A stretch of DNA of 64,000 nucleotides from the NCBI GenBank assembly GCA_964653655.1, contig CAZZHG010000009.1:11301-75300 (forward strand), given 5' to 3'. This DNA is from an uncultured Pseudobdellovibrionaceae bacterium (lineage in GTDB: Bacteria > Bdellovibrionota > FAC87 > UBA2466). The notes beneath the pieces were generated by a model, which ran no database searches, was not told where the DNA came from, and saw nothing but the letters and a program-made list of their open reading frames with translations. A program made the position numbers and the translations under genes. Shown here one piece after another: positions 353-62,719 of the stretch. Every line of letters starts with the position of its first letter. The stretch's first letter is position 1.

Positions 353-359
353 TCCGCGT

Positions 360-692
360 CTACATGTGCGCTGACGCTTGTTCTTGTGCTTCGGCGTGTT
401 CGTGCGCGTAGACGTGAACGTGCACCTATACGCAAGTTGGGGTGGCAAGAAAGCGATCGCTGGAAAGGGTAGTGCCGCTAGGTTCGGGCGTGGGTGGGGT
501 TCGTAGGCATACGAAACCCATCCGCGACTAACTCTAATTTGTGGCGGTACCCGCGCGAAGCTTCTAGGGAATGGTTCTCCGTATAAGTTCACGTTCACGT
601 CTATGGATAGGCTAAAGCCGACGTCTACCTCAACGTGAGCGTCTAACCATAAGTGGAAGCCAAACGTCTTCGTAAACCTGGCCCCCAAGGGG
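360..692 (+). promoter_or_regulatory. Long (~330 nt) leader upstream of kamD with a distal 14-bp inverted repeat (TAGACGTGAACGTG at 409-422; reverse complement at 590-603) and a local hairpin (GGGTTCGTA..TACGAAACCC around 505-535). Candidate structured 5' UTR / cis-regulatory RNA
   Basis: Seen directly in the sequence. No ORF of 60 aa or more lies in this gap. High GC with repeated CGTG/ACGTGAACGTG motifs. Confidence 0.25.
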
Positions 693-2318
693 TTGAAAAC
701 CGAGCGAAGTTCCCGGATACTGCCCCGCAGAATGTCGTTTTCAAATGAGCTCCCGCTACCGGCGAAGCAAATCGCCCGGTGTCGGCAAATTGCGTCCTCC
801 ATCGGCGATACGGTGGTGAAGCTCGTCCAGGCCAATTCGACGGTCGGGATCGAGCGCGCGGCCTTGCGCCTTCTCGGTTTCGACGGCGCCCTCGCTCACG
901 AAGGGCTTCTCTTTCCGGCCAGCAACTTCATCGTCGACCAGCTGAAACGCGCCGACCGGCTTCACGAGGGAGCCATCTACGCCATTGCGAACGCGCTCGT
1001 CGCCAGCGGGGAAACCGTCGAAGGGCTCCAAAAGAGAGTCCTCGAGGATAAGTTCGACGTTGGCGCGGTCGGTTCCCAGGACGCGAAGAAAGTGAAGAAG
1101 AAGCTCGATCTTCTCACCCGCGGCGCCTTCGAGAACCTGAAGCGCTATCGGACCGGCCGCCAGAAACTGCGGATGAAGCAGGGTGATCCAAAAAAATCGG
1201 GACGTCCCCTGAAATACGTCATCGTCGCGACGGGAAACATTTTCGAGGACGTGACTCAGGCGAAGAGCGCGGCGCTGGACGGAGCGGACATCATCGCCGT
1301 CATCCGCAGCACCGCCCAGTCGCTGCTCGATTACGTGCCCCAGGGCACGACGACCGAAGGATTCGGGGGCACCTACGCGACCCAAGCCAACTTCCGCGTG
1401 ATGCGCCAGGCGCTCGACGAACTGGGCGCCCAGATGGGCAAGTACATCCGGCTCACCAACTACTGTTCGGGTCTCTGCATGTCGGAGATCGCCGCGCTCG
1501 CTTCCCTGGAAGGCCTCGACTGCCTTCTGAACGACGCCATGTACGGAATTCTCTTCCGCGACATCAACATGAAGCGGACTCTCGTCGATCAGCACTTTTC
1601 CCGCGTCATCTGCGGTTTCTCCGACATTTGGATCATGACGGGCGAAGACAACTACATGAAGACCACCGACGCCGTGGAAAGCGGCGACCAGGTGCTCGCC
1701 TCCGAGTTCATCAACGAGCGCTGCGCGCTGAACGCCGGCATGAAGCTCGACCAGATGTCCATCGGCCATGCGATGGAGATGAATCCGGATTACGAGAACG
1801 TGATCCTCATGGAAATCGCGCGCGCCCAGATGACCCGCCAGATTTTTCCGAAGAGCCCCCTCAAGTACATGTGCAACACCAAGTTCAAGACGGGCGACAT
1901 CTTCACGGGCCACGCGCTCGATACCATCTTCAATTTCATCGGCTCCTTCACCGACCAGGGAACGATTCTCCTTGGCATGCCGACGGAAGCGATTCACACC
2001 CCGTGGCTTCACGATCGCACCGTCGCCATCCGCAGCGCGAATTACGTCCTTAACGGCACGCGCTCGATGACGGGCGAGTTCGGGTACCGCTCGGACGGGT
2101 TCATCTCCAAGTTCGCGAAAAAAGTGCTCGGCGACTGCGTGGACCTACTCGAAAAAATCGACGACCAGGGGTTCCTGGACGCCATCGAGAAGAGGACGTT
2201 CGCGGGAGTGAGCCGCACGGAAAAGGGCGGCAAAGGTTTTGACGGCGTCTTCGCGATCGAAAAAGGGCGCTACCAGAATCCGTTCTATAAACTGATGGGG
2301 AGCAAGATTTCGGTATAA
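693..2318 (+). CDS. kamD: Lysine 5,6-aminomutase alpha subunit (KamD-like). The true start could be the downstream Met at 732
   Basis: 541 aa. Conserved KamD blocks: YVIVATGNIFED, AVIRSTAQSLLDYVP, TTEGFGGTYATQANFR, NYCSGLCMSEIA, LNDAMYGILFRDINM. Immediately followed by the B12-binding beta subunit. Confidence 0.8.
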   Translation: MKTERSSRILPRRMSFSNELPLPAKQIARCRQIASSIGDTVVKLVQANSTVGIERAALRLLGFDGALAHEGLLFPASNFIVDQLKRADRLHEGAIYAIANALVASGETVEGLQKRVLEDKFDVGAVGSQDAKKVKKKLDLLTRGAFENLKRYRTGRQKLRMKQGDPKKSGRPLKYVIVATGNIFEDVTQAKSAALDGADIIAVIRSTAQSLLDYVPQGTTTEGFGGTYATQANFRVMRQALDELGAQMGKYIRLTNYCSGLCMSEIAALASLEGLDCLLNDAMYGILFRDINMKRTLVDQHFSRVICGFSDIWIMTGEDNYMKTTDAVESGDQVLASEFINERCALNAGMKLDQMSIGHAMEMNPDYENVILMEIARAQMTRQIFPKSPLKYMCNTKFKTGDIFTGHALDTIFNFIGSFTDQGTILLGMPTEAIHTPWLHDRTVAIRSANYVLNGTRSMTGEFGYRSDGFISKFAKKVLGDCVDLLEKIDDQGFLDAIEKRTFAGVSRTEKGGKGFDGVFAIEKGRYQNPFYKLMGSKISV

Positions 2319-15708: not shown

Positions 15709-17037
15709 TTAACGGCTGCAAAGAGACTCGACTTCCTCGATCTCCTTGGGAGCCTTCACGGTCAGCACTTTGCAACCGTTTGCGGTAATCAAGACGTCGT
15801 CCTCGATGCGCACGCCGATGCCCTTGTAACGGGCAGGACCGGGGGAATCGGGGCTGAAATAGAGACCCGGCTCGACGGTGAATACGTGGCCGGGCTCGAA
15901 CTTGCGGTGGTTTCCGTAGCGCTCGACGTAATAGGTGCCGATGTCGTGGACGTCCATGCCGAGCCAGTGGCCCGTGCCGTGGGGATAGAACGGCGAGTAG
16001 GCGCGGGTCTCGATGAGCTTCTTCGTCGGGCCTTTCAAAACTTTGAGCCGTTTCAGCTCTTCCACGAGCACTTCCACCGTCGTCTGGTGAATGGCCTGCA
16101 CCGTTTTTCCGGGGCGGGCGAGGCGGATTCCTTCCTTCTGGGCGGTCAGAACCGCTTCGTAAATTTCGCGCTGAGGTTCGGAGAAAGTTCCGCCGACCGG
16201 ACACACTCGGGTGATGTCGGCCGTGTAGTAGTCGAACTCGGCGCCCGCGTCGATGAGCAGCAAATCTTTCCCGCTCATGCGCCGGTCGTTCTGCACGTAA
16301 TGGAGCACGCAGGCATTCGGGCCGGAGGCGACAATCGACGAGTATCCGGCGCGCCCCGCGCCGTGTACGCGGAAGGCGTGATGCAAGATCGCCTCGAGCT
16401 CGTACTCGAACATGTGAGGCTTCGCCGTTCTCATCGCGGCGACATGGCCTTCCGCGGTGATGTCGGCGGCGATTTGCAGACGTTGTTGCTCGGCGGCGTT
16501 CTTCACGAGACGCATTTCTCCGAGAACGTTTTCCGGGTCGACGATGGGCCACAGCGCGCGCCCCGTTCTGCCGAGCTTGTGGCAAGCGGTCGCGAGGAGC
16601 CGGAACACTCGGGCGTCCATCTCCGGCTGAAGGCCGACCCGGTAGTAGACGGTTTCCGCTTCCTTGAGCGCTTCGATGAGAGCGTCGTCGAAAAAGTTTC
16701 CCGGCGTCGAAGCGAAAGCGGCGTCCGCTCCGAGACGTTGCTTGGCTCCTTCGGGGCCCAGGATCTTTCCTTCCCAAAGTTCCTTCGTCTTGTTGCGCGG
16801 CTCGACGAACATCTGAAACGGCGTCTTGCTCTCGGGCGAAAGCAGGCACAACGCGTTCGGTTCCTCGAATCCGGTGAGATAGAAGAAATTGCTGTCCTGG
16901 CGGTACGGGTGGTGGACGTCGTTGTTTCGGAGCGCGCTCTGAGCCGCGGGAAAAATCGCGACCCCGCCCTTTATCTTGCGGAGGAAATTCTTCCGGCGGG
17001 CGGCAAAATCAATCGACTGAATTTCCGTTGGCCACAT
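15709..17037 (-). CDS. pepP: Xaa-Pro aminopeptidase (M24B, PepP)
   Basis: N-terminal AMP_N domain. M24 metal-binding blocks HGTGHWLGMDVHD, VFTVEPGLY, IGVRIEDDV. Confidence 0.8.
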   Translation of the reverse strand: MWPTEIQSIDFAARRKNFLRKIKGGVAIFPAAQSALRNNDVHHPYRQDSNFFYLTGFEEPNALCLLSPESKTPFQMFVEPRNKTKELWEGKILGPEGAKQRLGADAAFASTPGNFFDDALIEALKEAETVYYRVGLQPEMDARVFRLLATACHKLGRTGRALWPIVDPENVLGEMRLVKNAAEQQRLQIAADITAEGHVAAMRTAKPHMFEYELEAILHHAFRVHGAGRAGYSSIVASGPNACVLHYVQNDRRMSGKDLLLIDAGAEFDYYTADITRVCPVGGTFSEPQREIYEAVLTAQKEGIRLARPGKTVQAIHQTTVEVLVEELKRLKVLKGPTKKLIETRAYSPFYPHGTGHWLGMDVHDIGTYYVERYGNHRKFEPGHVFTVEPGLYFSPDSPGPARYKGIGVRIEDDVLITANGCKVLTVKAPKEIEEVESLCSR

Positions 17038-34286: not shown

Positions 34287-34652
34287 ATGGATTGGCTACC
34301 GGAGGCTGCGGGCCGTCCTGAAGTGTTTTCTCCGAAGGGTCTCGCCTCCGGACTTTCGATTTACCTCATGACCCAGAAGCTGGGCAGCTCCGCCGCCGCC
34401 CATTGCGATATGAGCTTGGAGACGGGCATGAAGTTGGAAGTGAAACCTGGACGTCAGACTTTCGATCTCGCCCCGTTCGTGCTCGAGCGCGAACGGCAAT
34501 CGCCGAAGCTCGTAGTACTTTGCGCGGTGAACCCTGCCGTTCGGCAGGACAAGCCCAACCTCCAAGCGGGCTTCCCGTTGCGTTCGTACGCCATTATCGA
34601 CGACCTGACCGCGCCCAGGCACTTGGGCGAAAAGCTCAACTTGGTACCTTAG
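34287..34652 (+). CDS. Hypothetical protein
   Basis: 121-aa ORF with no recognisable domain. Weak call. Confidence 0.25.
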   Translation: MDWLPEAAGRPEVFSPKGLASGLSIYLMTQKLGSSAAAHCDMSLETGMKLEVKPGRQTFDLAPFVLERERQSPKLVVLCAVNPAVRQDKPNLQAGFPLRSYAIIDDLTAPRHLGEKLNLVP

Positions 34653-34810
34653 CCCTCACTCCCCGCCGGTTACGGACAGTAACCATAAGACAAAAAACAT
34701 GTAGTTACAGATGGTTACCGAGATTCCCCTCACTCTGTCGAGAAGGGGTCATTTTCCACTACGCCACGCGTCACAATTGTGGTTATTCTCCCCCATCCTC
34801 TGGAGATGGT

Positions 34811-36445
34811 GTGCAACAGACCAAGCTCGCTTTGGTTCTCATAGCTTTGGGACTCGTCTGCCCGGTGGCCGTAAACGCCGCCGATGGTCCCGTGCGCTCC
34901 TTTGTGACCAATACCGTTCTCTCGCGCCTCAGTCAGATGGGGCAAAGCATTGCGGCCCCAATCAAGCAGGCGCTTTGCCTTAAACCGGAAGAAGAATCCT
35001 CCATTCTCCGTCCCGACGGCATGGTCCTTTCGGGTGAGCTGGATTTCGCGAAACTATTGCCGGCGACCCGCGCGACGGGCCTTTCGACTTCCCTCGGAGG
35101 ATTCCTCTGGATGACCTATGCGAGGGGCGAGGAAGACGTCCACGTACAGGCGTACATCGTCCCCAGCGCGGGGATGGGAGTTCCGGGCGCTTCCGCGAAG
35201 GAAGTCCCGGGCAACGCGTACGTCGGTCTCGCGTTCAATTGCGCCACGAACCCGCACCAGTCCGATTACTTTCTCGAAGTGGGAGCCGGCGGTCCGTTGG
35301 GATTCAATTTCTTTTTCGACATGAACGTCCAGAATTTGATGGAGAAGGCGATGCTCGCCGGCGATCCGTCGAACACGCCGCGGACGTTCGAGAAGATCAT
35401 GAGTACCGCGCGCACGGCCGAGCCCGAGCTGCGCGAAGCGGTCGATGAGCTCGACCGGCGCAGCCGCTCCGTCGAGGGTGAGTTGGGCAACAGGCTTCTG
35501 TCGGCGTACGTACCACGCTGGCACGACGACGATCCCGCCGAGGGGCGCCCGATTTCCCATTGGATCGACGAAACGGCGAAGGCCGCTCAGGCCACCGCCC
35601 GTCTTTCGTCTTCCGCCGACAATCTCACCCGCCGGGTCGAGGATTTCTTGGCCCGCCTGAAGGGAGCCTCCGAAGATCCCCTCGAAAGGGTTCAGCTCGA
35701 AGTCGACGTCCAGCAGCTGTATCTGGATTTGGGTGGTGCGATTCGGACGCTCGCGCTCGCGACGTTCCCGCTCACCATCGGCCGAAGCCGCCGCGAGCTC
35801 TTCGCGAAGATGACGGACGAGGGCGTGAGGGATTTCTGGATCAAGCGGCCCTCCGGGAATTACCGGCACTACTGCTTTCCGACGGATCGTTTCATCGCGG
35901 TGAATAGCCGCGCCGAGGGCGGCTGGACCAAGAAGTATTACGATTGCCACTCGGGCTCGCTGCTCAGGCAGGCGCCGTACGATTCCGCGCGGGCGTGGCT
36001 GCGCGCGAGCCGTACTCTCGTCGAGCGGGCCGACAACTACCGAGCGGCTCTCTGGGATTTGACTCACGTCGTGAATAACACGTACGCGCAGTACCTCACC
36101 GGACAGAAGGTGCGGCCCGAGTCGGTACGCGTGGGCGGCACTTATACGGGACCCGTCTTCACGGGCTGTTTCGGCATCGAAGTTTCGCTGGTCTCTCTGG
36201 CGAAAACCGGAGCGGCTCTCTTTCGCCAGGCGAGCGCGCTCGCCCGAAACGCCTTGTCGACGACTCCGGCTTCGGCGACTGAGCTCGTGGCGACGATGGG
36301 AACTCAGGTGGCCGATCTCGGGTATCCGCCGTGGAGTCCCTCGGCGAGCCTTTCCTACCCCTACGCGGTAGGGAAAGAGGTCAAGATTCCCCTGACCTCC
36401 ATGCCGAAGCTGTGGCGGATGGTATTCGCCGGCGAATGCGAATAG
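34811..36445 (+). CDS. Large secreted protein of unknown function. Start set at the GTG preceding the signal peptide
   Basis: Signal peptide VQQTKLALVLIALGLVCPVAVNA. 544 aa. The long ORF upstream of 34811 has no in-frame ATG. Confidence 0.45.
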   Translation: MQQTKLALVLIALGLVCPVAVNAADGPVRSFVTNTVLSRLSQMGQSIAAPIKQALCLKPEEESSILRPDGMVLSGELDFAKLLPATRATGLSTSLGGFLWMTYARGEEDVHVQAYIVPSAGMGVPGASAKEVPGNAYVGLAFNCATNPHQSDYFLEVGAGGPLGFNFFFDMNVQNLMEKAMLAGDPSNTPRTFEKIMSTARTAEPELREAVDELDRRSRSVEGELGNRLLSAYVPRWHDDDPAEGRPISHWIDETAKAAQATARLSSSADNLTRRVEDFLARLKGASEDPLERVQLEVDVQQLYLDLGGAIRTLALATFPLTIGRSRRELFAKMTDEGVRDFWIKRPSGNYRHYCFPTDRFIAVNSRAEGGWTKKYYDCHSGSLLRQAPYDSARAWLRASRTLVERADNYRAALWDLTHVVNNTYAQYLTGQKVRPESVRVGGTYTGPVFTGCFGIEVSLVSLAKTGAALFRQASALARNALSTTPASATELVATMGTQVADLGYPPWSPSASLSYPYAVGKEVKIPLTSMPKLWRMVFAGECE

Positions 36446-37045
36446 CTACTCTTTCCGCGGTAAGGGCAGCAGCTCTACTTGCAGGTCGGGAATTGGCTTC
36501 AAGTCCATGGTCGAAAGAATCCGCTGAGCTTCCGCGAGCGGATCCTTGAAGACCCGAGGCTCCGAAGCGAGCGGAGTCTTTCTCACCTTCATCAGATCGA
36601 CGACGAGAAGGGACTTGCCCGGGTTCTTGTAATCCCAGTTTCCCTCCCGAACCGCGCCGATGCGGCCGGATATCATGTCGGCCCGCTCGATGTAGGGATG
36701 AACGATGTAGTAGGACTCAGCCTTCAGAGAGCGGCGCACGAGCGTCAGCACTTCCTGAATCTGATATTCCGATTCCGCCGAGCCCTCGATGACGAGGGCG
36801 TTTCCTTCGATTCCGAAATCGAGAGCAGGCCAGTTCAGCTCGGCCTTCATTTGACCGAAAGTTCCCTGCGCTTCGGCGAGACTTAGAATGTCGTTGGGTG
36901 TGGGCCGGTGAACGGGCCCGCTCCGCGCGAGCAGATAAGTAGTGAGACCGGCCGTCGCGAAAGAAACGGCGGACATAAGCCCCAACAGGATGAGCCAGGC
37001 GCGCCGCGGGTTATACGTATTTCCTGTGACTTTGTTTCTCCCCAT
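36446..37045 (-). CDS. Membrane-anchored protein of unknown function
   Basis: Strong RBS GGGAGGGGG before the Met of MGRNKV. One TM segment (AWLILLGLMSAVSFATAGL). Confidence 0.45.
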   Translation of the reverse strand: MGRNKVTGNTYNPRRAWLILLGLMSAVSFATAGLTTYLLARSGPVHRPTPNDILSLAEAQGTFGQMKAELNWPALDFGIEGNALVIEGSAESEYQIQEVLTLVRRSLKAESYYIVHPYIERADMISGRIGAVREGNWDYKNPGKSLLVVDLMKVRKTPLASEPRVFKDPLAEAQRILSTMDLKPIPDLQVELLPLPRKE

Positions 37046-37142
37046 AAATCCCCCTCCCTTCGATCCTACGCCCGTTGAAACGGGAGGGGGGCCGTATACC
37101 AATTGAGTACGGCCAGATTTCACAATTGGGGAGCTGGAGCAG

Positions 37143-37946
37143 CTACGGATCGAAACGGATCGGAGCCAGATGTTGCAATGACGTAGGAGCAGGGATTTTC
37201 TCCACTCGCATGAGCGATCGGAACGTTCCGACCCGTTCGACGCACGTGTTCATCTGGCCATAAGTGCTGAAATCCAAAAAACTCCGATAAGGTCTGCTCT
37301 GATCGACCCACTCTTCGCCCCGAAAAAAGACCTCTGGCGACCCCGAATTTCCGGGCCCGACATAAATTCGACCAACAACATGAGGTCCAGGGGAGTCGTT
37401 CCTTCCCGCGTGCGCGACCCCAGTGCATCCCGGATCGTCGAAATATACCTGCCACGGTTTACCTGTGAACTTGCCGGAGCCCACGTCGATGTGAATCAGG
37501 TCCTTATTCGGAATCATCATCAGTGCGGCGCCAACGTGCTCCTTCGAGAATTCGATAAGTACGCCCCGAACCACGCCATTGTCCATTAGTGCCATGCGCA
37601 CTCCACTTCCGTCGATGCCGTTTCGCCCATTCGTTCCATTCAAGCCTGGTTCACCCTGTGGACCAACATCACCTTTCGGTCCCGGCTCGCCCGCTTCTCC
37701 TCGCTCCCCTTTATCTCCTTTGAGGTTGATGGCGATCCATGTTTTGCCATCGCACGCATAAAGAGTTTTTTCGTGTGAATCGAATCGGACGGTGCCTTCT
37801 TTGCCCGGATTGCAATTGTCCGAAGAAGAGAGGCTGGAGATGCTTTGGGGATTAGGGCCGGACTCACGTTCGTCCGCAGTATTTAGGCACCCCGCAAGGC
37901 TAAGAGCGATTAGGGAAGTGGAGCAAAAAAGGTGACGGTGGCTCAT
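37143..37946 (-). CDS. Lipoprotein with a collagen-like triple-helix repeat (12 consecutive G-X-Y triplets)
   Basis: Lipobox LSLAGC. GDKGERGEAGEPGPKGDVGPQGEPGLNGTNGRNGIDG in the middle of the protein. Confidence 0.6.
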   Translation of the reverse strand: MSHRHLFCSTSLIALSLAGCLNTADERESGPNPQSISSLSSSDNCNPGKEGTVRFDSHEKTLYACDGKTWIAINLKGDKGERGEAGEPGPKGDVGPQGEPGLNGTNGRNGIDGSGVRMALMDNGVVRGVLIEFSKEHVGAALMMIPNKDLIHIDVGSGKFTGKPWQVYFDDPGCTGVAHAGRNDSPGPHVVGRIYVGPGNSGSPEVFFRGEEWVDQSRPYRSFLDFSTYGQMNTCVERVGTFRSLMRVEKIPAPTSLQHLAPIRFDP

Positions 37947-38125: not shown

Positions 38126-38671
38126 TTAGTGAGTCGACTTTGGGCGAGGGCTCGAGGAAGACGAGGGCGCCACTTTCACGTCCCCGTCGGTCACTTCGAA
38201 GCACCGCTTATTGTCGGTGAGATTCTTGAAGTACATTTCGTTATTCTTGTCCTCGCAGAGGCTTCCGATTTTCAAGTGAGTCAGCTCGCCCGAAGGGAGC
38301 TTGAAGACCAGAACGAGATTCGCCTGGTGGGGCAAAATCTTCTGGGCGTCGCCATCGCTCAAGCGGGCCTGAAAGACTTCTCCGGCGTTGAGCGCCGGCT
38401 TCCAGCTCGTGAACGCATAAGCGTCCGAGTCCTTGCGGAAGAGATTCCACGTGGTGCCTTGGGGAAGGGCGCCTTTCTTCGTGAGGTTGAGCATCCAGTG
38501 GCTGCCGTCCGGATCAGTCGCGCCGAGGGAGAAGATGACTCCGAAGGAAAGCTTTCCGGAAGCCGTAGTCTTCAACTCGATTTCTTTTCCGAAGCCCGAG
38601 TAGTCGAACTTGTCGGCCGCAAACGCCGAGAGGGAAACCAGAGCCAAACCGAGGAAGAAGGTGAACTTCAT
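38126..38671 (-). CDS. Secreted protein of unknown function
   Basis: Signal peptide MKFTFFLGLALVSLSAFA. 181 aa. Confidence 0.45.
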   Translation of the reverse strand: MKFTFFLGLALVSLSAFAADKFDYSGFGKEIELKTTASGKLSFGVIFSLGATDPDGSHWMLNLTKKGALPQGTTWNLFRKDSDAYAFTSWKPALNAGEVFQARLSDGDAQKILPHQANLVLVFKLPSGELTHLKIGSLCEDKNNEMYFKNLTDNKRCFEVTDGDVKVAPSSSSSPRPKSTH

Positions 38672-38815
38672 TTTCAAACTCTCCAAAGGAACGGACCAAA
38701 AGCCGAGGAATTCGGTGCAAATGTGGCGCCACGGGCCTCGGGCGCCGGCCCTGCGTTGCAGTACCAGTTGTCTGTAGAACCTGTGATCGGTGGGACGAAG
38801 ATCGTCCCCTATTTT

Positions 38816-39193
38816 TTACTCGCGGGACTCGCGTCCCAGCTCCTCGATCTTGCCGATACGCCGGCCGTCGGCCGCGAATCGAACGAGAACGTCCACGTAC
38901 TCAGCGTCTTCCGTGTAAGAAAGGCGCACTTCGTTCAGGTAACCGAGAACGCGGCCATCCACGGTGCTGCGGATCCGATACCAGCGTTCGCTAACGAGGT
39001 CGTAGTACCCGTCGCCCATTTCGAACGGAACGTCGACCGAGCCGAGCGTCCGCTTGAGGGCGGGGGGCAAAGCCTGGAATTGAGCATTGGTCATTTTCGT
39101 GACCCCGCGGTCTCCGGGATAAACCCGGTTTAGCGGCTTGGCGAAGGCCGAGACACCGGCCAACAGAGCGAGACTCAAGAGTACACGTTTCAT
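38816..39193 (-). CDS. Small secreted protein of unknown function
   Basis: Signal peptide MKRVLLSLALLAGVSAFA. 125 aa. Confidence 0.45.
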   Translation of the reverse strand: MKRVLLSLALLAGVSAFAKPLNRVYPGDRGVTKMTNAQFQALPPALKRTLGSVDVPFEMGDGYYDLVSERWYRIRSTVDGRVLGYLNEVRLSYTEDAEYVDVLVRFAADGRRIGKIEELGRESRE

Positions 39194-39295
39194 GGGCTAC
39201 CTCCGTTTAGACAACGGCCCGTAACCTAGCGAGACGCGACTAGGCACGTCATGTGGCGACTGGAGATCGCGAGATCAACTCGATAACACCTTGGA

Positions 39296-39877
39296 TTACG
39301 GCCGCACCGACGCCGCAATGGTGAGGTCGGAGGCAAATCTCAAGAAGCCCGGCGCGCGCATTTCCTTGAGCGTGAACCAGCCGACTTGCTGAATCTCCGC
39401 GGGATCGTGGGATTGCAGCGGCTCTTTTAGCTGATCCGGGAAGAGGACGTGGCAACGAAAGGCCGCGACCGTCACGGTCGTCTTGATCAGATCACCCACG
39501 ACCACGTCGACGCCCGTCTCCTCTTTCGTCTCCCGGCCGGCCGCGCAGAAGGCCGGCTCCGCGTAGTCGTAAGGGATGTTTTTCGCGGCCTCGAAGCTCT
39601 CCGGAGAAAACGGCTTTCCCGTTTTGGGATTGAGATTGGAGTCGAAATCCGTCGTCAGGGCTTTGCCCCCGGGAAATCCCCAGCCCACTTGTTTCGAATT
39701 TCCAGCGTACCCAAGAAGAAACTGCAGCTCGCCGCCAACTTCGCGCGTAAGCACGCAAGTGCCGTTGTGAGTGAGCGAGCCGTGCTTCACCAGGGTGTCC
39801 GCCTTCACCCGGCAGCCGGGAACGAAGTCGGAACCGAACGCGGGCAAAGCCAGCAATCCGGCGAGCATGAGCTTCAT
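39296..39877 (-). CDS. Secreted NUDIX-family hydrolase
   Basis: Signal peptide MKLMLAGLLALPAFG. FPGGK plus Nudix box E(x7)RETKEETGV. The ATG overlaps the stop of the upstream gene (ATGA at 39874-39877). Confidence 0.55.
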   Translation of the reverse strand: MKLMLAGLLALPAFGSDFVPGCRVKADTLVKHGSLTHNGTCVLTREVGGELQFLLGYAGNSKQVGWGFPGGKALTTDFDSNLNPKTGKPFSPESFEAAKNIPYDYAEPAFCAAGRETKEETGVDVVVGDLIKTTVTVAAFRCHVLFPDQLKEPLQSHDPAEIQQVGWFTLKEMRAPGFLRFASDLTIAASVRP

Positions 39878-40584
39878 GTGCCCGCGACGATCTTGTTGAT
39901 CGAGCGCCCGCCCATGGAACGAACGTGGAGGAGAAACACCCCACGCGGCAGCGTCTGAGTAATGGGAACGGTCTTCGTGAACGGGAAATTTCCCTTGCGG
40001 CAGCTGCTCTCGAGGCGCGCCATCCTCGGGCGCACAATGGCGGCGTCCGGCTGGACTTGAACGTCGACGCTGTCGATGGTCAGACAATCCATGGGCATGA
40101 AACCTTTGAGCACCAGAACGTCTTTGCCTTCCTGCTTCAGCAAATACGCGTCCGTGAGAGGCGGATAGGGGAGGCTGTCGACGCCGCTGCCGGAGACGGG
40201 GGCGCGGCCGACGCCGAGAGTTCCGATGGCCCGGCGGGTGGGATTGTCCTGAATGGCGTAGATTCCGGGGTTTCGGATCGGACCGACGTACACCGGAAGG
40301 TAGAAGGGGATGTCCGCCTTCACGCAATTGCCCGAATACTCATAGGCGGTGAGGTTGATGGTCAAAATCTTCCGGGCTTCGTCGAGGTCTCCGGAGACTC
40401 TTCCCACTTGAGTGCAGGAGTCTCTGAGAATCCCCATCACGACGATCTCAACGCTATCGTCGGTATCGAACCCGTTCGGAACGTAGACTTTGACTATGGG
40501 CTGGGAAACCTCTCGCAAGTAGTTGCCCGCGACGGCGGAAGCCGAGAGAAAACAAGCCAGCAATATCCCCAATCCAACCTTCAT
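39874..40584 (-). CDS. Secreted protein of unknown function, co-transcribed with the NUDIX gene
   Basis: Signal peptide MKVGLGILLACFLSASAVAG. 236 aa. Confidence 0.5.
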   Translation of the reverse strand: MKVGLGILLACFLSASAVAGNYLREVSQPIVKVYVPNGFDTDDSVEIVVMGILRDSCTQVGRVSGDLDEARKILTINLTAYEYSGNCVKADIPFYLPVYVGPIRNPGIYAIQDNPTRRAIGTLGVGRAPVSGSGVDSLPYPPLTDAYLLKQEGKDVLVLKGFMPMDCLTIDSVDVQVQPDAAIVRPRMARLESSCRKGNFPFTKTVPITQTLPRGVFLLHVRSMGGRSINKIVAGT

Positions 40585-40738
40585 GTACTTCTCCTAACTA
40601 GAGTCCCAGTTTCGTGAGCGATCGATAGCAAGGCGGGGGTGATTGGTAAACTGCCTATATCAGAGACCTTTAACGGACCGGGTTGAGCCGGAACCGTGGC
40701 TTTTGGTATCCCTGGGGCCTCAATTTTTGGAGGTCCGG

Positions 40739-41260
40739 ATGGGACGTTTCTCTCTCGTGGCTCTTTTGCTTTCGTTGTCTGCACTCGCCGCCCCTCAGGG
40801 GCTCGAAAAGTTCCGTGGGGACTGGGTGCTCGATCCGTGCGGGCGCCAGATAGTGGAAGGCCGCGAATGCCCGAATCCCCTCTATGTCCGGCACTTTTAT
40901 CGGGAGAATAAATACGAAGGTTTGGAACTCTTGAACTACGACGAAGGCCGTAAAGAGAGCATGTATTCGGCTTTCGACCGGGCCAACTTCTCTTTCTTCG
41001 GAAATTTCGCGACCTGCTCGTGGGTCGGGACGCTGCGCATTTGCCACCACACCTCGCAGCCCAGGGCGAATTCGATAGTCCACCGCCGTAGCATCCGCCA
41101 GTTCGGCCTGCTGGGCTCCGTAGACGGACAGGTCATCCGGCTCGAAAAATCGCAGGCCTGCACGAGGACGCCCGTCGATCAGCTCATCTACACCTACAAA
41201 CTCGACGGGGAGCTCATCCAGCAGTGCGTTTACGTCCGTCCCGGATCGTCCGAAAAATAA
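40739..41260 (+). CDS. Secreted Cys-containing protein of unknown function
   Basis: RBS GGAGG. Signal peptide MGRFSLVALLLSLSALAAP. Confidence 0.45.
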   Translation: MGRFSLVALLLSLSALAAPQGLEKFRGDWVLDPCGRQIVEGRECPNPLYVRHFYRENKYEGLELLNYDEGRKESMYSAFDRANFSFFGNFATCSWVGTLRICHHTSQPRANSIVHRRSIRQFGLLGSVDGQVIRLEKSQACTRTPVDQLIYTYKLDGELIQQCVYVRPGSSEK

Positions 41261-42344
41261 GGACGCCGAGATAGAGCCAGGCGAGAAAGCCGACGATGGG
41301 CCCGGGCATCGGGAACATGCGGTTGAAGTAGGACGACGCCGGGAAGGTGCCCGTCCAGAAAGCCAAATACACCAGCCCTATGAAAACTCCGGCGATGGTT
41401 CCGTAGCGAATCCCTGCTCGAGGTGAGTAAGCCGCGAGTAGCGGAGCCGCGTAAACCGTGTATTGAACGCCGAATCCCGGCGCGAAAAACAGAAACAGCA
41501 TCGGCACGAGGCTCGCCGCCGCGAGAGTGTGCTTGCGCTGCCGGCGCGCCCAGTAGGCCACGGCGAAGATCGCGGCGAACACCACCCACCGGCCGTGGTT
41601 GAAATAGAAATCCGAGAACCGCGCGGCCATCGGCCCGAGGACGGCTCCGCCGTCCCGCGCGTATAGCGCGAGAAACTCGATGCCCCACAATTCCAGATTC
41701 GATTTATAGGCGAGGGCGTTCCGGTAGAACTGCGGGCCCGAGCTCCACAGAAAGGGCAGAAACGGAATCACTCCCAGCGACAGGCCGCCGAGAAAGCGAA
41801 AGCAGCGCTTCCAGTCTCGGTACGGGGCGAGCATCACCGGGATCGCGAGCACGGGAACGAGCTTCACGTTGATGGCCGCGGCGAGGGCGAGACCCGCCGC
41901 AAAATCTTTCGAGCGCGTGAGAAGCCAGGCGCTGATCAGCCAAAGCCCCGCGCAATAAGTGTCGGTATTGCCGTGGTAGGCCGTCACCAGAATGGCCGTC
42001 AGGTTTAAGGCGTAAAGCGCTCCCGCAAGTTGGGCGTCGCGCAGAGAATCGAGCGGCTTTCGAATCGAATAGATGAGGTACATCAGCCCGACGTCGAAGA
42101 GAACCAAAGGCAGCTTGAAGAAATAGGGGAAGGGAATGTTCAACAGGCCGCTGTAGTAAAGCACCGTGGTGGCCCACTTGCCCATGAGCGGCGGGTGGTT
42201 GAAGAAGACCTCGGTGCGGTACATGTGATCGAGGCCGTGTGCTTGGATGCGGGTGGCGAAGTTCACCCAGCTGGCCATGTCGTTCGAGCCGCCGGAGCAA
42301 AACATCACCACAAGTCGAAGAAGCGTGCCGACGACGGCAAGCAA
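41214..42344 (-). CDS. Polytopic membrane protein, DUF2029 / GT87-like putative glycosyltransferase
   Basis: About 10 TM helices. The overall pattern resembles the DUF2029 mannosyltransferase-like family. Confidence 0.45.
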   Translation of the reverse strand: MLAVVGTLLRLVVMFCSGGSNDMASWVNFATRIQAHGLDHMYRTEVFFNHPPLMGKWATTVLYYSGLLNIPFPYFFKLPLVLFDVGLMYLIYSIRKPLDSLRDAQLAGALYALNLTAILVTAYHGNTDTYCAGLWLISAWLLTRSKDFAAGLALAAAINVKLVPVLAIPVMLAPYRDWKRCFRFLGGLSLGVIPFLPFLWSSGPQFYRNALAYKSNLELWGIEFLALYARDGGAVLGPMAARFSDFYFNHGRWVVFAAIFAVAYWARRQRKHTLAAASLVPMLFLFFAPGFGVQYTVYAAPLLAAYSPRAGIRYGTIAGVFIGLVYLAFWTGTFPASSYFNRMFPMPGPIVGFLAWLYLGVLIFRTIRDGRKRTAG

Positions 42345-42474: not shown

Positions 42475-43521
42475 CTATTTACAGGCGGAAAACGTCTTGC
42501 TGCTTTCCTGTTCCACCGACCATACGCCCGTGACGGCGCCGGCATGCTCGGGACGCCAGTACGCGCGCAGAAAGACCCGGCCGGTCGCCGGATCGACGTC
42601 CATCACGCGCAGGTTCTTCACGTCTTCGCCCAGCTCCGACAAGTCCCAGGTATCCACCGCGACGGCGGTGGCGCCGCTCACGTCGTGGACGTGAAGCGTT
42701 TTGGCGAAGTAGGACAGAGTCAGAACGCATTTCCCAAGGCCTGCTACCGCCGCGGGGCCGTCGGCGACGGTAATCTCGTGGCGCGCTTTTCCGGTGGCCG
42801 CGTCGAAAACATGCACGCGATCCGCGCCCGTTTCGGTGACGGCTACTTGCTTCGTGCCGGAGAGGACCGCGAGGTTGCTCAGCATGTTGCGGTTACCCGC
42901 GAAGAGCCGCTCTCCCGTGTTCGTTTTCAAATCGAAGCGCACGAGATTCTCGTCGCCCTGGTAGAAACTTTTTCTCTCCACGATGAAGAGGGAGTCTCCG
43001 GCGAGGGCCATCTTGCCCGGGCCCGAGATCTCGAAGGGCAACGCCTTCGCGCCGAATCCGCCCAACCGGTACACCGCCCGGCTTCCCGCTTCATTGAAGA
43101 AGAGGGCGCCTTCGCGTCCGGCGAAATACTCCGTCTGGATACCGTCCGGAAGCGTCGCTGTCTTGGAGACGAGCTTTCCGTTTTTCATTTCCAGCGTCGT
43201 GTAATAGGTGAACCAGCCGCCCTGGTCCTGATAGGCCTTCCCCACGGCGACCGCTTTCTTGCCGAGGGGCGCGAGCTGATTGATCGTGTGGGTGAGCTTC
43301 GCGGTGCCGAGCAGCTTCGTGCCGTCCGCGGAGTAGGCTTCGACTCTATAAAGGTTCACCGCTTGCGGGCCGCGGTTTCGGCCGACCCAAAGGGTGTTTT
43401 CGTGGAAGAGATGACCCTCATAGGGGTCGCTGTCTTCCAGAGGAACGAGTGAGCGGACCTTTATGCCAGGAGCGGCGAAAGCCGTGGCGCTAAGGAACAA
43501 AACCAGAAAAAACTTACCCAT
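42475..43521 (-). CDS. Secreted protein of unknown function (beta-rich, possibly a propeller)
   Basis: Signal peptide MGKFFLVLFLSATAFAAP. The Met lies inside the longer ORF listed in the track. 348 aa. Confidence 0.45.
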   Translation of the reverse strand: MGKFFLVLFLSATAFAAPGIKVRSLVPLEDSDPYEGHLFHENTLWVGRNRGPQAVNLYRVEAYSADGTKLLGTAKLTHTINQLAPLGKKAVAVGKAYQDQGGWFTYYTTLEMKNGKLVSKTATLPDGIQTEYFAGREGALFFNEAGSRAVYRLGGFGAKALPFEISGPGKMALAGDSLFIVERKSFYQGDENLVRFDLKTNTGERLFAGNRNMLSNLAVLSGTKQVAVTETGADRVHVFDAATGKARHEITVADGPAAVAGLGKCVLTLSYFAKTLHVHDVSGATAVAVDTWDLSELGEDVKNLRVMDVDPATGRVFLRAYWRPEHAGAVTGVWSVEQESSKTFSACK

Positions 43522-43731: not shown

Positions 43732-44502
43732 ATGCGCCAGTTCCAGTCGTCGCTGTGGGCTCTTTGTTTCGCGGTGGTCTCCTCGCAGGCTTTCGCCCAG
43801 CAGGCGACTCCCCAGCCCCCGAAGCCGGGTCTGCAACCCGCGCCGCAAACGCAGCAGCAAGGGGTCGACCCTCTCGCCGGCACCACGCAGCCCGGTTACC
43901 CCGTGGACCCCGCGCAGCCGGCCACTCCCGCGACCCCGGCTCAGCCGGCCCCGGTGACGCCCGGTCAGCAGCCCGCGCCCGTGACGCCTGGACAACAACC
44001 GGCTCCGGTCGTCGGCGGTCAGCCCGCTCCGGTGGTTGGCGTTCAGCCGGCTCCCGTAGTTGGTGGACAACCCGCTCCCGTTGTCGGCGTTCAGCCGGCT
44101 CCCGTGCTTTTGCTTCCGGCCGCCCCCGAAATGCGGCGTATCTATAATTTGATGATGGCCACCCGCCGTTTCGCGAACGGCGTCGGCCACACCGTTGCGG
44201 CCAGTCAGCTCGCCATCTGTCTCCCGGGCCTCACGCCGGAGCAGAAGGTGCAGACTTTGATGGCGACGATGTCCGCGCTCGCCCGCAGCAACATTCCGGT
44301 CATCAACGAAGCCTTCGCGTTCGGCATCTACGACGACGCTCAGGTCAGCGTCATCGCGTCTCTGCTCGCTTGCAAAGCCGGCGCGCGCACGCCGGTCCAG
44401 ATGGTGCAGTCGCTCGGCGCCGCCTATCGCGAGCTGCTCATCAACTACAACCTTCTCGACTCGCTCTATCAGGTGGAAGTGGCCGTTCGTTTGATGCCGT
44501 AA
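43732..44502 (+). CDS. Secreted protein with a Pro-rich tandem-repeat linker (QPAPVVGG/QPAPVVGV x4, GQQPAPVTP x2) and a C-terminal globular domain
   Basis: Signal peptide. Nucleotide-level imperfect tandem repeats around 43950-44110. Confidence 0.55.
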   Translation: MRQFQSSLWALCFAVVSSQAFAQQATPQPPKPGLQPAPQTQQQGVDPLAGTTQPGYPVDPAQPATPATPAQPAPVTPGQQPAPVTPGQQPAPVVGGQPAPVVGVQPAPVVGGQPAPVVGVQPAPVLLLPAAPEMRRIYNLMMATRRFANGVGHTVAASQLAICLPGLTPEQKVQTLMATMSALARSNIPVINEAFAFGIYDDAQVSVIASLLACKAGARTPVQMVQSLGAAYRELLINYNLLDSLYQVEVAVRLMP

Positions 44503-44503
44503 C

Positions 44504-45862
44504 CTACTTGGCCCAGGGGCAGGACTCGTTCAGCCAGTCGGCGAGAATGCCCGTTTCCTTCGCGCTCTTGTCGATGGTGGGATAGCCGCCGTAGTACTCC
44601 ACGTTGATGAGCTCCGACAGGAGCTTGGCGTCCTCCTTGGAGAGGTTCGCTTTGGGCGGCATGTGCCCGTGCACTACGTAGTTCTCGAAAAGTCCCGGAA
44701 AAAGCAGCTGCTCCCCGATCGTGTTCGCGATGGACGAGCCGTCGTGGCATTTCACGCAGTTCATATGGGGCGCGACCCGTTTTAGGGCGGCGTCGTCGGC
44801 CGCGGGCGTCGAGGTTTTCGTCGCAAGCCTTCTCAAATACTCGATGGGCCGCTTCTTCGCCGGACCGCGGGCGGGACCGAGCGGGGCGAGGTTCAGCTTT
44901 TCTGGCAGAGCGAGAGCCACTTCGGCGATGTGCTCGTTCATCTCCGCCATCACCTTCAATCCATCCTTCTCCCCTTCCGGGAGCGACACTTGAATTTGCT
45001 TGGGGTCCTTCGAGACCAGCGAGATAGGCGAGGTGCGATGGCACTGCAGGCAAGTGATCACGTCGACGGTCCTTCGCTCTAGATCGCCCGAGTGTCCGAG
45101 GGCGTGCATCTGGAACGTGGACTTCCCTTCGTGGTTGCCCGCCGGAGTCACCCGGATGGAAAGAAAGTCTTCGGGTTTGCTGCTTCCCAGGGAGAAGTGC
45201 GTCCAAAATTGCGTGCCGTCGGGGCGGACGTCGAGGATCACGAGCGAGTCGAGCCCCTTGATGACCGCCGAGTCGAAACGGATGGCCCGCGCCTGCTTGG
45301 CTCCGTCCGTGAGGGTCTTGAGGGCCGCGAGCAGCTTTTCCTTTTGCTCGGGCTTTTCCGTGTTGGCGGCTACCGCCCGTAGATTCGCGGCCGTATAGGA
45401 CGGCGGGAATCCGTCGACGGAAGGCGTCTTTTCCTTCTTCTTTTCGAAGATAGACGAAATGAATTCGCCGGAAATCTTTTCCATCTCGACGATGCGCTGG
45501 AAGCAGGCCTGGAACTCCGGCCGATCGTGAATCGTCTCCTGGCCGGGGCGGCAACGCCTGATGAAATCCCCGACCGAACCGGCTCCGATGGTGAGCTCCC
45601 CTTCGCCGTTCTCTTTGAGCAGCTTGAAACTCTGGTTCTGCACCGTCGGCAGGAATTTTTCCCGGCGCCAGGTTTTCCATTCCTCGAGGGTCTTCGGACA
45701 CTCGCCCATGGCCTCGGAAGTAAACCGGAAGAGCGACGTGCTTTCGCCGGAGGACTCCTCGTGATCTCCCGGGACGTTCAGGGGAAGACCCATCATGGTC
45801 CGGGTTTCCTGGGAGAAAGCCGCCGGGGAAAAGAAGGCGAGCAAGACCATCCAAAGAGGCAT
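44504..45862 (-). CDS. Secreted protein with two CxxCH haem-binding motifs (putative di-haem c-type cytochrome-like protein)
   Basis: Signal peptide. CLQCHR and CVKCHD motifs. Confidence 0.45.
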   Translation of the reverse strand: MPLWMVLLAFFSPAAFSQETRTMMGLPLNVPGDHEESSGESTSLFRFTSEAMGECPKTLEEWKTWRREKFLPTVQNQSFKLLKENGEGELTIGAGSVGDFIRRCRPGQETIHDRPEFQACFQRIVEMEKISGEFISSIFEKKKEKTPSVDGFPPSYTAANLRAVAANTEKPEQKEKLLAALKTLTDGAKQARAIRFDSAVIKGLDSLVILDVRPDGTQFWTHFSLGSSKPEDFLSIRVTPAGNHEGKSTFQMHALGHSGDLERRTVDVITCLQCHRTSPISLVSKDPKQIQVSLPEGEKDGLKVMAEMNEHIAEVALALPEKLNLAPLGPARGPAKKRPIEYLRRLATKTSTPAADDAALKRVAPHMNCVKCHDGSSIANTIGEQLLFPGLFENYVVHGHMPPKANLSKEDAKLLSELINVEYYGGYPTIDKSAKETGILADWLNESCPWAK

Positions 45863-60505: not shown

Positions 60506-62719
60506 GTGAAATCCGGGAAGCTGAAATTAGCCGCCGACCCGCGTTCGCGCCGGGATGCGCTCGCCGTCGCGGCCTCAGTCTGGCTGGTGGGAGTGCTCGT
60601 TTTCTTCGCTTCCCCCCTCGGCCGGGACCTCGAAGAGCGCATCGCTCTGCCGGTCTCCTTTCAGTTCCGCCACTGGGCAGGCAAGTCTCCGAGTCTCGAC
60701 TCGCGGATCAAGATTTACGCGGTCGACGATGCGACCGTGCAGTTTCTAAAGCGCGAAGATCTGACCCTTCAGGAATGGTTGAAAGTTTTGAACGAGCTCG
60801 TGCCGACCCGGCCGAAGGCCGTCGTGTTCGATCGCGTGTTCAGCAATCCTCTCGGTGTGGAGCACGCGGACGAATTCGTCACGGGAGTCAAAGCGCTGCC
60901 TTTTCCCGTTTACGCCGGAGCTTTTTCCTCCGGTGCCCCCATCAACGGTTTGAAAGCGCTTGAAACGGATAGAAGCGAATGGGATTTGCGTGAGGCTCCG
61001 GGCGGAGGAGATCTCGCCGCGTGGGACTGGCTGTCGATTTCACCCGGAACTCCCTACGGCCCGAACCCGGCCATCTTGGGCGCTTTCCGCGGGCTCGGTC
61101 ACCTTCACCACGAAGGCCCGTACTTCACGCCGTGGGTTCGCTTCAGCCAGAAAGGAGCGATTCCGTTTCTCGCGCTTCTTCCCACCGGCGGGGATCCGGG
61201 CAAAGTTCGCCGGGCGGTGGTCGATTTCATGCACCCCGCGCGGTACTACGAGCGAACGGCTGCGTTGAAGAGTCTTCTAAAAGGTAAAACTCCGCAGGTC
61301 GAGGAGGGCTCCATCGTTTTGTTTCTCACTCACATGCACACGGGGGGAACGGATTTTCACGATAGCCCCTTCGGCCGCATTCCCGGCGGGTACTGGATAG
61401 CAAGCGTATTGAATAGCTCGCTGTCGCATCGGTGGCTGCGGCCAGTTCCCTGGCCCGCCGTCAGCCTGTTTACCGCCTGCGCTTTCGGCGCTGCCGTCGG
61501 GCTCGTCGTCCACACGCTTTCTTTCTGGTCGTTGATGGTCACGGGCCTTCTCGGATTTCTCACCTTCGGCCTCGCCGGCTTCTCCTGGCTCGGTCTCGCG
61601 ACTCCCTGGCTCGCCTGCGTTACGGGTTTCGGTACGGCGGGGTTGTTGACGTTCTTTCTCGGACACCGCCGCCGGGAAGCGGAGTGGGAGCTCCTGCAAG
61701 TTTGTCTCGAAGGCGCGCTGCCCTCCGGCGAGCTGAGAAAGTGGATCGGCCGCGGCGAACGGCTCATGAAGCCGAGCGGGCAGGTTCTGTCGATTCTGTT
61801 TCTCGACATCGTCGGCTTCTCCCGTGTGGCCGAGCGCCAGAGCCCCGAGGAGGCCTTCGCGCACCTGCGCGATCTGATCACCTGGATTACGAATCTCGTG
61901 CACGAGCACGGGGGAATCGTCGATAAAACGCTTGGCGACGGCTTACTTTGCTTCTTCGGGCTCTCGGGCGAGGAGAAGGCCGTGCGCCACGCCGACCAGG
62001 CCCTTCGCTGCGCGGTCCGCATCCAGCGCGAAAGCGCGAAGCGCATGATCGAGCGGGGCCGGGCCAACCAGCCGGTCTTCCCGCTCCGCATCGGCATCAA
62101 CACGGCGGGTGTGTTTCTCGGAAACCTCGGCAGCGGCAAGCGCATCGATCTGACGGTCATCGGGCAGGGGGTGAATCTCGCCCGCCGTTACGAAGAAGCG
62201 TGCGAAACGGGCCGCATTCTCATCGGCAGGAGCACTTCCGATTTGCTTTTAGGCGGAGTCGAGTCGGGCGTTTCCCTCGTCGATCGGTGGATCTCCATCA
62301 AGCACGTCACCGAATTGCAGAAGGTGATCGAAGTGGATCCCTTCGAGCAGGACCCGAGGCTTCTCTCGGAGGCCATCGCCGCCCACCGCAAGTTCCTCGG
62401 AGTCGAGCGGGTGGACGAGCGCTGGACCATCCCGGCGGGCGTGAATCTTTCCCTTCAGTCTCCCCTCGGCCAAGGGGTCGTGGTGAACTTCTCCCAGTCC
62501 GGTCTCGGTATCCGGTTCTCCCGTTTCCTCGGCAAGTCGAGCATGATCCCGCTGCAGGTTGCGGACACGGATCTCATCTGCGAGGTCCGCTGGGGAACGG
62601 CGATGAAGGCCCCTCAAGGCGCTTACTACCTGGGGCTCGAGATCAAGAATCTCACCTTCGAACAGCGCAAGGTCTGGGTCGAGGCGATGCGCAGGACGCT
62701 CACGAAAAGCGCCGCTTAG
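60506..62719 (+). CDS. CHASE2 sensor domain-containing class III adenylate/guanylate cyclase with a C-terminal extension
   Basis: N-terminal extracytoplasmic CHASE2-like region, a cluster of TM helices, and a cyclase core (ILFLDIVGFSRV, TLGDGLLCFFG). Confidence 0.65.
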   Translation: MKSGKLKLAADPRSRRDALAVAASVWLVGVLVFFASPLGRDLEERIALPVSFQFRHWAGKSPSLDSRIKIYAVDDATVQFLKREDLTLQEWLKVLNELVPTRPKAVVFDRVFSNPLGVEHADEFVTGVKALPFPVYAGAFSSGAPINGLKALETDRSEWDLREAPGGGDLAAWDWLSISPGTPYGPNPAILGAFRGLGHLHHEGPYFTPWVRFSQKGAIPFLALLPTGGDPGKVRRAVVDFMHPARYYERTAALKSLLKGKTPQVEEGSIVLFLTHMHTGGTDFHDSPFGRIPGGYWIASVLNSSLSHRWLRPVPWPAVSLFTACAFGAAVGLVVHTLSFWSLMVTGLLGFLTFGLAGFSWLGLATPWLACVTGFGTAGLLTFFLGHRRREAEWELLQVCLEGALPSGELRKWIGRGERLMKPSGQVLSILFLDIVGFSRVAERQSPEEAFAHLRDLITWITNLVHEHGGIVDKTLGDGLLCFFGLSGEEKAVRHADQALRCAVRIQRESAKRMIERGRANQPVFPLRIGINTAGVFLGNLGSGKRIDLTVIGQGVNLARRYEEACETGRILIGRSTSDLLLGGVESGVSLVDRWISIKHVTELQKVIEVDPFEQDPRLLSEAIAAHRKFLGVERVDERWTIPAGVNLSLQSPLGQGVVVNFSQSGLGIRFSRFLGKSSMIPLQVADTDLICEVRWGTAMKAPQGAYYLGLEIKNLTFEQRKVWVEAMRRTLTKSAA

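Follow-up and report, generated by a model that had tools for sequence, protein, structure and literature searches.

A 64,000-nucleotide stretch of DNA from an uncultured Pseudobdellovibrionaceae bacterium (assembly GCA_964653655.1, contig CAZZHG010000009.1, positions 11,301 to 75,300 of the forward strand; hereafter the window) carries a gene for a Nudix protein that appears to be exported and whose Nudix box is split by a long insertion. The gene lies among five consecutive open reading frames (ORFs), all of which have a good coding signal and an N-terminal leader (Table 1); the gene directly upstream, which overlaps it, is called the partner gene here. A preliminary description of this DNA had assigned signal peptides to all five products, and our analysis agrees with it, each leader consisting of an n-region with Lys or Arg, an uncharged hydrophobic stretch, 14-21 residues long with h- and c-regions taken together, and an A-x-A/G cleavage site. 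Signal peptides were judged by an in-house heuristic for the n-, h- and c-regions. For this locus we computed gene structure, homology, fold, conservation, selection and synteny, and we infer cleavage site, disulfide pairing, localisation, activity and substrate class.

Table 1. Genes and sequence features at the Nudix locus, with positions in the window.
Feature	Position	Strand	Description
g1	38126-38671	minus	181 aa, predicted exported orphan; start is the ATG at 38671; leader MKFTFFLGLALVSLSAFA followed by A
g2	38816-39193	minus	125 aa, predicted exported orphan, downstream of the Nudix gene; own GGAGG ribosome-binding site; leader MKRVLLSLALLAGVSAFA followed by K
Nudix gene	39296-39877	minus	193 aa; stop codon 39296-39298; leader MKLMLAGLLALPAFG followed by S
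Partner gene	39874-40584	minus	236 aa, predicted exported, upstream of the Nudix gene; leader MKVGLGILLACFLSASAVA followed by G
g5	40739-41260	plus	173 aa, predicted exported, Cys-rich orphan; leader MGRFSLVALLLSLSALA followed by A
GT87-like gene	41214-42344	minus	polytopic membrane glycosyltransferase, Pfam GT87 48.1 bits; neighbour, no functional link shown
Nudix signal peptide	39833-39877	minus	predicted Sec/signal peptidase I type, MKLMLAGLLALPAFG; predicted cleavage between AFG and SDF
Nudix-box insertion	39560-39664	minus	K72-A106, 35 residues, two short helices predicted
Nudix-box catalytic core	39509-39559	minus	E107-x7-R115-E116-T-K-E119-E120-T-G-V, from sequence and alignment
Stop/start overlap	39874-39877	minus	ATGA; TGA of the partner gene overlaps ATG of the Nudix gene

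The 193-residue protein matched the Pfam NUDIX family (PF00293) with 34.5 bits against a cut-off of 21.1 (E 2.3e-8), the alignment covering residues 111-175 only, and it matched PHROG 1198, 'MutT/NUDIX hydrolase', with an E-value of 1.3e-6. The sequence bears out the E-x7-RETKEETGV box previously noted in this protein; the seven intervening residues read PAFCAAG, and the first U position of the box is occupied by T. The insertion after FPGG, estimated earlier at about 35 residues, is exactly that long, counted between G71 of FPGG and E107, where a canonical box has the 5 residues of G-x5-E. Since the G-x5-E spacing is broken, the protein is classed as a variant and not as a canonical member of the superfamily.

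A word-indexed search of 5.8 billion clusters recovered six proteins of this Nudix clade and its profile version nine, while HMMER, run exhaustively with a profile against 1.84 billion representatives, returned 14 at E<1e-10, i.e., with at least 81 bits. Below these 14 the scores drop from 81 to 55 bits or less, to generic Nudix proteins that align chiefly through the box and the C-terminal half. The family representatives amount to about 14 clusters at 50% identity, and each clade member was found on one to a few contigs only. Judged by these searches, the window protein is a member of a small, sharply bounded and undescribed clade, whose rarity suggests that its biological reach is probably narrow. 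A tblastn match of the Nudix protein at window positions 16429-16803 (E 0.006) was rejected as spurious, being an antisense shadow ORF of junk composition.

Conservation was assessed in an alignment of 17 sequences, made up of 16 N-terminally complete relatives and a protein re-derived from the locus L005. Residues C22, R23, C41, G70, G71, Y105, E107, A113, R115, E116, E119, E120 and F140 are invariant in this alignment, and conservation is 90% or higher at N38, P69, D79, P108, C111, T112, V125, V127 and C142. The insertion is present in every member, with a G-to-E spacing of about 23-36 residues, and it contains the near-invariant D79 followed by the invariant Y105. Comparison with the orthologue at the locus L001 gave a dN/dS of 0.116 for the Nudix gene, a value which indicates that the gene is under purifying selection. 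Based on the invariant catalytic residues and this selection, an active pyrophosphohydrolase would be expected.

The AlphaFold2 model of the Nudix protein, built from the same 17 sequences, had a mean predicted local distance difference test (pLDDT) score of 92.1 and a predicted template modeling (pTM) score of 0.84, with residues 21-190 confidently placed. Over residues 1-20 the pLDDT was 58-64, as expected for a leader; from residue 21 it rose to 95-97, insertion included, and the insertion was modelled with helices at 76-79 and 92-99 (pLDDT about 95). A Foldseek comparison against the Protein Data Bank (PDB) returned Nudix enzymes alone at probability 1.0, with modest similarity (14-20% identity, best E 3e-6, TMq 0.51), among them MutT1 (3fjy), the ApnA hydrolase Rv2985 (9cxx), MutT2 (5zro), an Ap4A hydrolase (1ktg), NUDT7, DIPP and NUDX1; the structure search of BFVD gave the same picture, with matches to Nudix proteins. 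The sequence profile search of the PDB aligned the protein from the catalytic helix onward only. On the strength of the model we are confident that the protein adopts the Nudix alpha/beta/alpha fold. In the Foldseek comparison with the PDB no solved Nudix relative was close enough to hint at a substrate.

All 19 of the N-terminally complete members carry a hydrophobic leader of variable sequence, in which the uncharged run is mostly 14-19 residues long. The leader ends with small residues at positions -3 and -1 and is followed by a conserved mature N-terminus, typically D-P-V-x-G-C-R-V-K; after the leader, 17 of the 19 members have exactly four cysteines. In the window protein the heuristic divides the leader into MK, LMLAGLLALP and AFG, the last of these preceding S, and this pattern is kept in the relatives examined even though the sequence varies. 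We favour export because the leader is kept in form and not in sequence, the cleavage sites are of the signal peptidase I type, four cysteines are retained, and no linker separates leader and fold. Export thus looks like a trait of the family and not like an accident of annotation.

The same N-terminal evidence bears on the possibility that the protein is an ordinary cytoplasmic housecleaning Nudix enzyme, its hydrophobic N-terminus being a start-codon artefact or without function. Most Nudix enzymes are cytoplasmic, one relative is named 'MutT' in one source, and the L005 homologue (GCA_023250715.1) is annotated in N-terminally short forms (P0005 with 106 aa and P0007 with 169 aa). However, a full 202-aa frame with leader and the whole conserved N-terminus is present at positions 9713-10321 of L005, starting from a GTG at 9713. 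Since the frame continues upstream to this GTG, which had been missed, the two short entries are gene-calling artefacts. Every full-length member has the leader, no in-frame downstream start would keep the invariant C22-R23, and four invariant or near-invariant cysteines are typical of oxidising compartments, so that a cytoplasmic enzyme seems to us very improbable. A transmembrane anchor with the catalytic domain left in the cytoplasm, which the preliminary description had taken into account, is likewise unlikely, the uncharged runs being mostly 14-19 residues long with small residues at -3 and -1 at their ends.

We also considered export in another form, either as a lipoprotein with C22 lipidated after cleavage by signal peptidase II or as an uncleaved signal-anchored protein. 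The position of C22 would fit a lipoprotein, as it is invariant, lies 5-8 residues past the hydrophobic core and, in 18 of the 19 members, follows a G, A or S at -1. At position -2, however, most members have H, N, D, K, F or P, and an Asp usually stands between h-region and Cys, which does not fit a lipobox; in the window protein the test for [LVI][ASTVI][GAS]C failed, its V-P-G-C being preceded by S-D-F. This misfit of the residues before C22 makes signal peptidase I likelier than signal peptidase II. In addition, a good A-x-A/G site stands upstream of C22 in all members, the chain from C22 onward belongs to the compact fold (pLDDT 96) with no linker, and lipidation of C22 would leave three conserved cysteines, an odd number. 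As for the anchored variant, the positive n-region means that the domain would most likely lie outside the cytoplasm even if the leader stayed uncleaved. We regard both forms as unlikely.

Our preferred explanation, to which we assign a probability of about 0.6, is that the gene encodes an active, exported and disulfide-stabilised Nudix pyrophosphohydrolase of an undescribed extracytoplasmic clade. The protein would be made with a Sec signal peptide, signal peptidase I would cut it around AFG and SDF, and the mature protein would fold as a Nudix alpha/beta/alpha domain in the periplasm, the default destination of an exported protein in a diderm, or go further out. The four cysteines lie at the start of the N-terminal extension, in strand 1, in the catalytic helix and in a following strand, and two disulfides would probably lock the fold, with C22-C41 tethering the N-terminal extension and C111-C142 tying the catalytic helix to the sheet. 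A diphosphate bond would be hydrolysed via the metal-binding cluster of invariant E107, R115, E116, E119 and E120. The loop that carries the insertion flanks the substrate pocket in Nudix enzymes; with its near-invariant D79 and invariant Y105, the insertion of 23-36 residues is the obvious candidate for a specificity lid, and a lid by the active site that sets substrate specificity is most likely its role.

Several points weigh against this explanation. The signal-peptide call draws on the heuristic and on conservation only, and the two cysteine pairs, which the model suggests, were read from secondary-structure positions only. No classical specificity motif was found in the protein among those for ADP-ribose pyrophosphatases, Ap4A hydrolases, NADH pyrophosphatases and the NuCoA class, defined respectively by a Pro 15-16 residues after the box, a Tyr 16-18 residues after the box, SQPWPFPxS, and LLTxR[SA]x3[RK]x3Gx3FPGG; positions +15 to +18 after the box are A-A-F-R, with the invariant aromatic residue F140 in place of a Tyr. 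The gene neighbourhoods of the family give no consistent functional hint. Finally, judging from the sequence, the box spacing is broken and hydrolase activity is not guaranteed, because a few proteins of the Nudix clan with altered boxes are not hydrolases (PMC5389931).

The lack of a specificity motif makes the substrate class a guess. Our best guess is an extracytoplasmic nucleotide-diphosphate-X compound such as an NDP-sugar, NAD or ADP-ribose, or ApnA, and the enzyme would then scavenge much as the periplasmic enzymes of the UshA/NadN type do. We also considered an enzyme of envelope precursors, which would serve the assembly of envelope glycans by cutting, for example, a polyprenyl-diphosphate-linked intermediate or the 1-diphosphate of lipid A on the outer side of the inner membrane. 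Envelope-glycan genes occur within 1-3 genes of the Nudix gene at 5 of about 9 loci, namely a GT87-like GT-C gene in the window, a PMT_2 GT-C gene at L001, YfhO and BlaR1/transpeptidase genes at L005, YceG/MltG at L006 and a GT4 gene at L019, and some Nudix enzymes accept prenyl diphosphates; NUDX1 with geraniol (5gp0) is among the Foldseek matches. On the other hand, the glycosyltransferases are mutually non-homologous and differ in orientation, L002-4, L014 and L020 have no such neighbour, and envelope genes are common, so their proximity may be due to chance. The 19-kDa domain is soluble and has no obvious membrane-binding element, and GT-C enzymes of the GT87 and PMT_2 types generally use polyprenyl-monophosphate sugars and not diphosphates. 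Such a role for the Nudix protein is in our view improbable. A broader proposal, in which the clade is a distinct extracytoplasmic Nudix class whose lid fits the active site to a substrate confined to the outside of the cytoplasm, such as an extracellular or periplasmic nucleotide signal (extracellular ATP, ApnA, NAD or ADP-ribose) or an envelope-bound diphosphate intermediate, and which would provide bacteria with a hitherto undescribed periplasmic Nudix activity, is put forward only tentatively and with considerable doubt.

The window protein shares with canonical Nudix enzymes (MutT, MutT1, MutT2, Ap4A hydrolases and RppH) the fold and the E-x7-REUxEExGU helix, acidic residues included. Those enzymes are cytoplasmic, have no leader and carry a 5-residue G-x5-E loop, whereas the clade of the window protein has a signal peptide, an N-terminal segment beginning with the invariant C-R, four conserved cysteines, and 23-36 residues where the others have x5; the structures resemble each other only at a TM-score of about 0.5 with 14-20% identity, and the Pfam and PDB profiles align with the C-terminal half only. 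Human IDI1 also has an insertion inside the Nudix box region (PMC5389931), but its box is degenerate and the enzyme an isomerase, while the REUxEExGU core of the window protein is fully canonical. Possible functional analogues, by analogy only, are UshA of E. coli and NadN of Haemophilus. These periplasmic enzymes cleave UDP-sugars or NAD so that the products can be taken up, and they belong to the metallophosphoesterase/5'-nucleotidase family, the fold of which is unrelated to Nudix.

Nudix hydrolases are usually seen as enzymes of the cytoplasm with housecleaning or regulatory tasks. The terms signal peptide, periplasm, secreted and extracellular do not occur in the 2017 review of the clan (PMC5389931), and the review of Nudix effectors gives signal-peptide examples only in oomycetes and fungi, its bacterial examples being type III substrates only (PMC4981494). 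The phrase 'periplasmic Nudix' was absent from a full-text literature search, the coverage of which is incomplete, so that this is absence of evidence only. We regard an exported Nudix clade with a split box as undescribed in bacteria. If our preferred explanation is correct, a conserved clade of exported, disulfide-bonded and catalytically intact enzymes would carry Nudix chemistry into the periplasm or out of the cell. The protein is compact, with about 175 confidently modelled residues, and its inserted loop is open to a direct test of substrate choice.

The overlap of the Nudix ATG with the stop codon of the preceding gene, as given in the preliminary description, is borne out by the sequence, the minus strand reading ATGA at 39874-39877. 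A Shine-Dalgarno (SD) sequence of the type GGAG, GGAGG or AGGAG lies 5-8 nt before the start codons of g1, g2, the partner gene and g5, and none precedes the Nudix gene. At L001 the partner stop codon is followed by 3 nt and then by the Nudix ATG, again without an SD sequence, in contrast to stand-alone Nudix genes (L002, L006, L014 and L019), which have their own GGAGG or AGGAG 5-8 nt upstream. With no ribosome-binding site of its own, the Nudix gene probably depends on coupling or re-initiation for its translation, an arrangement confined to this lineage; the coupling proposed earlier is thus plausible.

The partner family is also small, with five homologues in the 5.8 billion clusters, and its sole annotation is a faint precomputed match to PF27154 'ORF11_beta'. 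The AlphaFold2 model of the partner (pLDDT 74) shows two all-beta modules in tandem, each about 100 aa long, and the protein has a weak internal repeat in which the cysteine pairs C57/C87 and C167/C195 are in register, each pair being conserved; neither the sequence nor the fold found a match in the PDB. The partner proteins of the window and L001 share about 76-77% identity and the Nudix proteins about 78-79%; dN is 0.139 for both genes at a dS of 1.1-1.2, and dN/dS for the partner is 0.126. At L011, two partner paralogues stand adjacent and divergent at 2-376 (minus strand) and 604-1317 (plus strand), the second copy with 32% identity over 133 aa. This adjacency suggests that the beta-sandwich family of the partner expands locally and independently of the Nudix gene.

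Given the tight coupling of the two genes, we weighed the earlier proposal that the Nudix protein and its partner form an effector pair directed at prey or a host, in which a nucleotide signal would be hydrolysed in the target, or that the partner is a chaperone or immunity protein. Both proteins are exported according to the heuristic, they evolve at equal rates (the dN given above), and the region is very rich in exported proteins. Nudix domains that leave the cytoplasm of their producer are known as well: in Phytophthora Avr3b, Colletotrichum CtNUDIX and Magnaporthe MoNUDIX the Nudix domain is preceded by a signal peptide at the N-terminus, while bacterial effectors such as Ralstonia Hpx26/RipN and Xanthomonas XCV0537 are delivered by type III secretion and not by a Sec leader (PMC4981494). 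Our searches showed no specific sequence kinship to these effectors, recovering only this clade and generic Nudix proteins. To our knowledge, a split Nudix box has not been described in any of the effector examples.

Synteny speaks against such a pair, however. The partner adjoins the Nudix gene only in the window, in L013, which has the same sequence, and in L001. Unrelated neighbours were found at the other loci: a 151-aa exported protein upstream and a lipoprotein downstream in L002-4, divergent BlaI/BlaR1 and YfhO near the gene in L005, YceG upstream and a convergent MiaB in L006, Fic/Doc-like and GH3-like genes on either side and on the other strand in L014 (labels read from translations), GT4 upstream and Oxidored_q6 downstream in L019, and orphan genes in L020. 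Conversely, no Nudix gene follows the partner homologues of L011 and L012, which are followed by a PAS sensor protein (L011) and by small membrane and porin-like proteins (L012), again labelled from translations. The 151-aa gene upstream in L002 was tried as a diverged partner and rejected (hhalign probability 0.2%), and the GT87-like gene of the window and the PMT_2 gene of L001 were rejected as conserved synteny, as they are not homologous (BLASTP E 0.4). PADLOC gave only a sub-threshold match to PDC-S07 (E 0.0016, 16 bits, Nudix), PHROG only generic Nudix, and no specialised secretion-system or toxin genes occurred among the neighbours scanned, which were part of the window genes. Because the pairing is confined to one sub-lineage, the two genes do not form an obligate pair and represent a local operon arrangement, in which the Nudix gene would have been placed behind an exported tandem beta-sandwich protein in the lineage of the window only. 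The analysis brought up no evidence of predation or of a target in prey or host, and an effector function for the pair has, in our judgment, little in its favour as an explanation.

It had also been proposed that the five genes form a distinct cluster of secreted proteins, and our analysis did not bear this out. Four of the genes are on the minus strand and one on the plus strand, so they are not one operon. In a crude, GC3-based gene call of the window (69 ORFs), 31 ORFs (about 45%) had a signal-peptide-like N-terminus, with further runs of 4-6 present; at this frequency a run of five is expected about once in a window of this size. The flanking genes at 34403-36445, 37143-37946, 42475-43521, 43732-44502 and 44504-45862 are predicted to be exported as well, and the one at 36446-37123 is predicted to be transmembrane-anchored. 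The boundaries of the cluster are thus arbitrary, and a run of five is about what chance would give in this genome. The Nudix clade itself is what deserves to be kept, and less weight should be given to the ideas of an effector pair and of a secreted cluster.

The products of g1, g2, the partner gene and g5 had no above-threshold match in Pfam, NCBIfam, PADLOC or PHROG, and no homologue of g1, g2 or g5 was detectable in any of the family loci compared. Sequence searches of the PDB found nothing for g1 and g5, and the best match for g2 was insignificant (E 0.046). The position of g2 next to the Nudix gene is not conserved at other family loci. A 7-bp GC-rich hairpin lies at 38792-38808, directly after the g2 stop codon; as its T-run is confined to the plus strand, it looks like a terminator of transcription running the other way. 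In a scan of the sequence for promoters and terminators, sites were no commoner than in shuffled sequence. The N-terminus of g5 recurs on L013, which comes from an independent assembly and is identical to the window over the shared region, and the convergent 3' ends of g5 (plus strand) and the GT87-like gene (minus strand) overlap by 47 bp, at 41214-41260.

The organism behind this DNA is poorly characterised, has about 60% GC and is rich in predicted secreted proteins; many window ORFs have no Pfam match. The product of 37143-37946 (minus strand) is a predicted lipoprotein, beginning MSHRHLFCSTSLIALSLAGC, with collagen-like G-x-y repeats (Pfam Collagen 27.6 bits, just over the cut-off). At 43732-44502 (plus strand) a predicted exported protein with no family match contains a proline-rich tandem repeat that includes QPAPVVGGQPAPVVGVQPAPVVGG. 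The 452-aa predicted exported product of 44504-45862 (minus strand) carries two haem-binding motifs of the form CxxCH, at residues 271 and 369, with only a weak match to Cytochrome_CBB3, and may be a periplasmic dihaem protein of a new kind. An adenylate/guanylate cyclase with a CHASE2 sensor at 60506-62719 (plus strand) and the alpha subunit of D-lysine 5,6-aminomutase at 693-2318 (plus strand) are mentioned as context and have no bearing on the Nudix finding.

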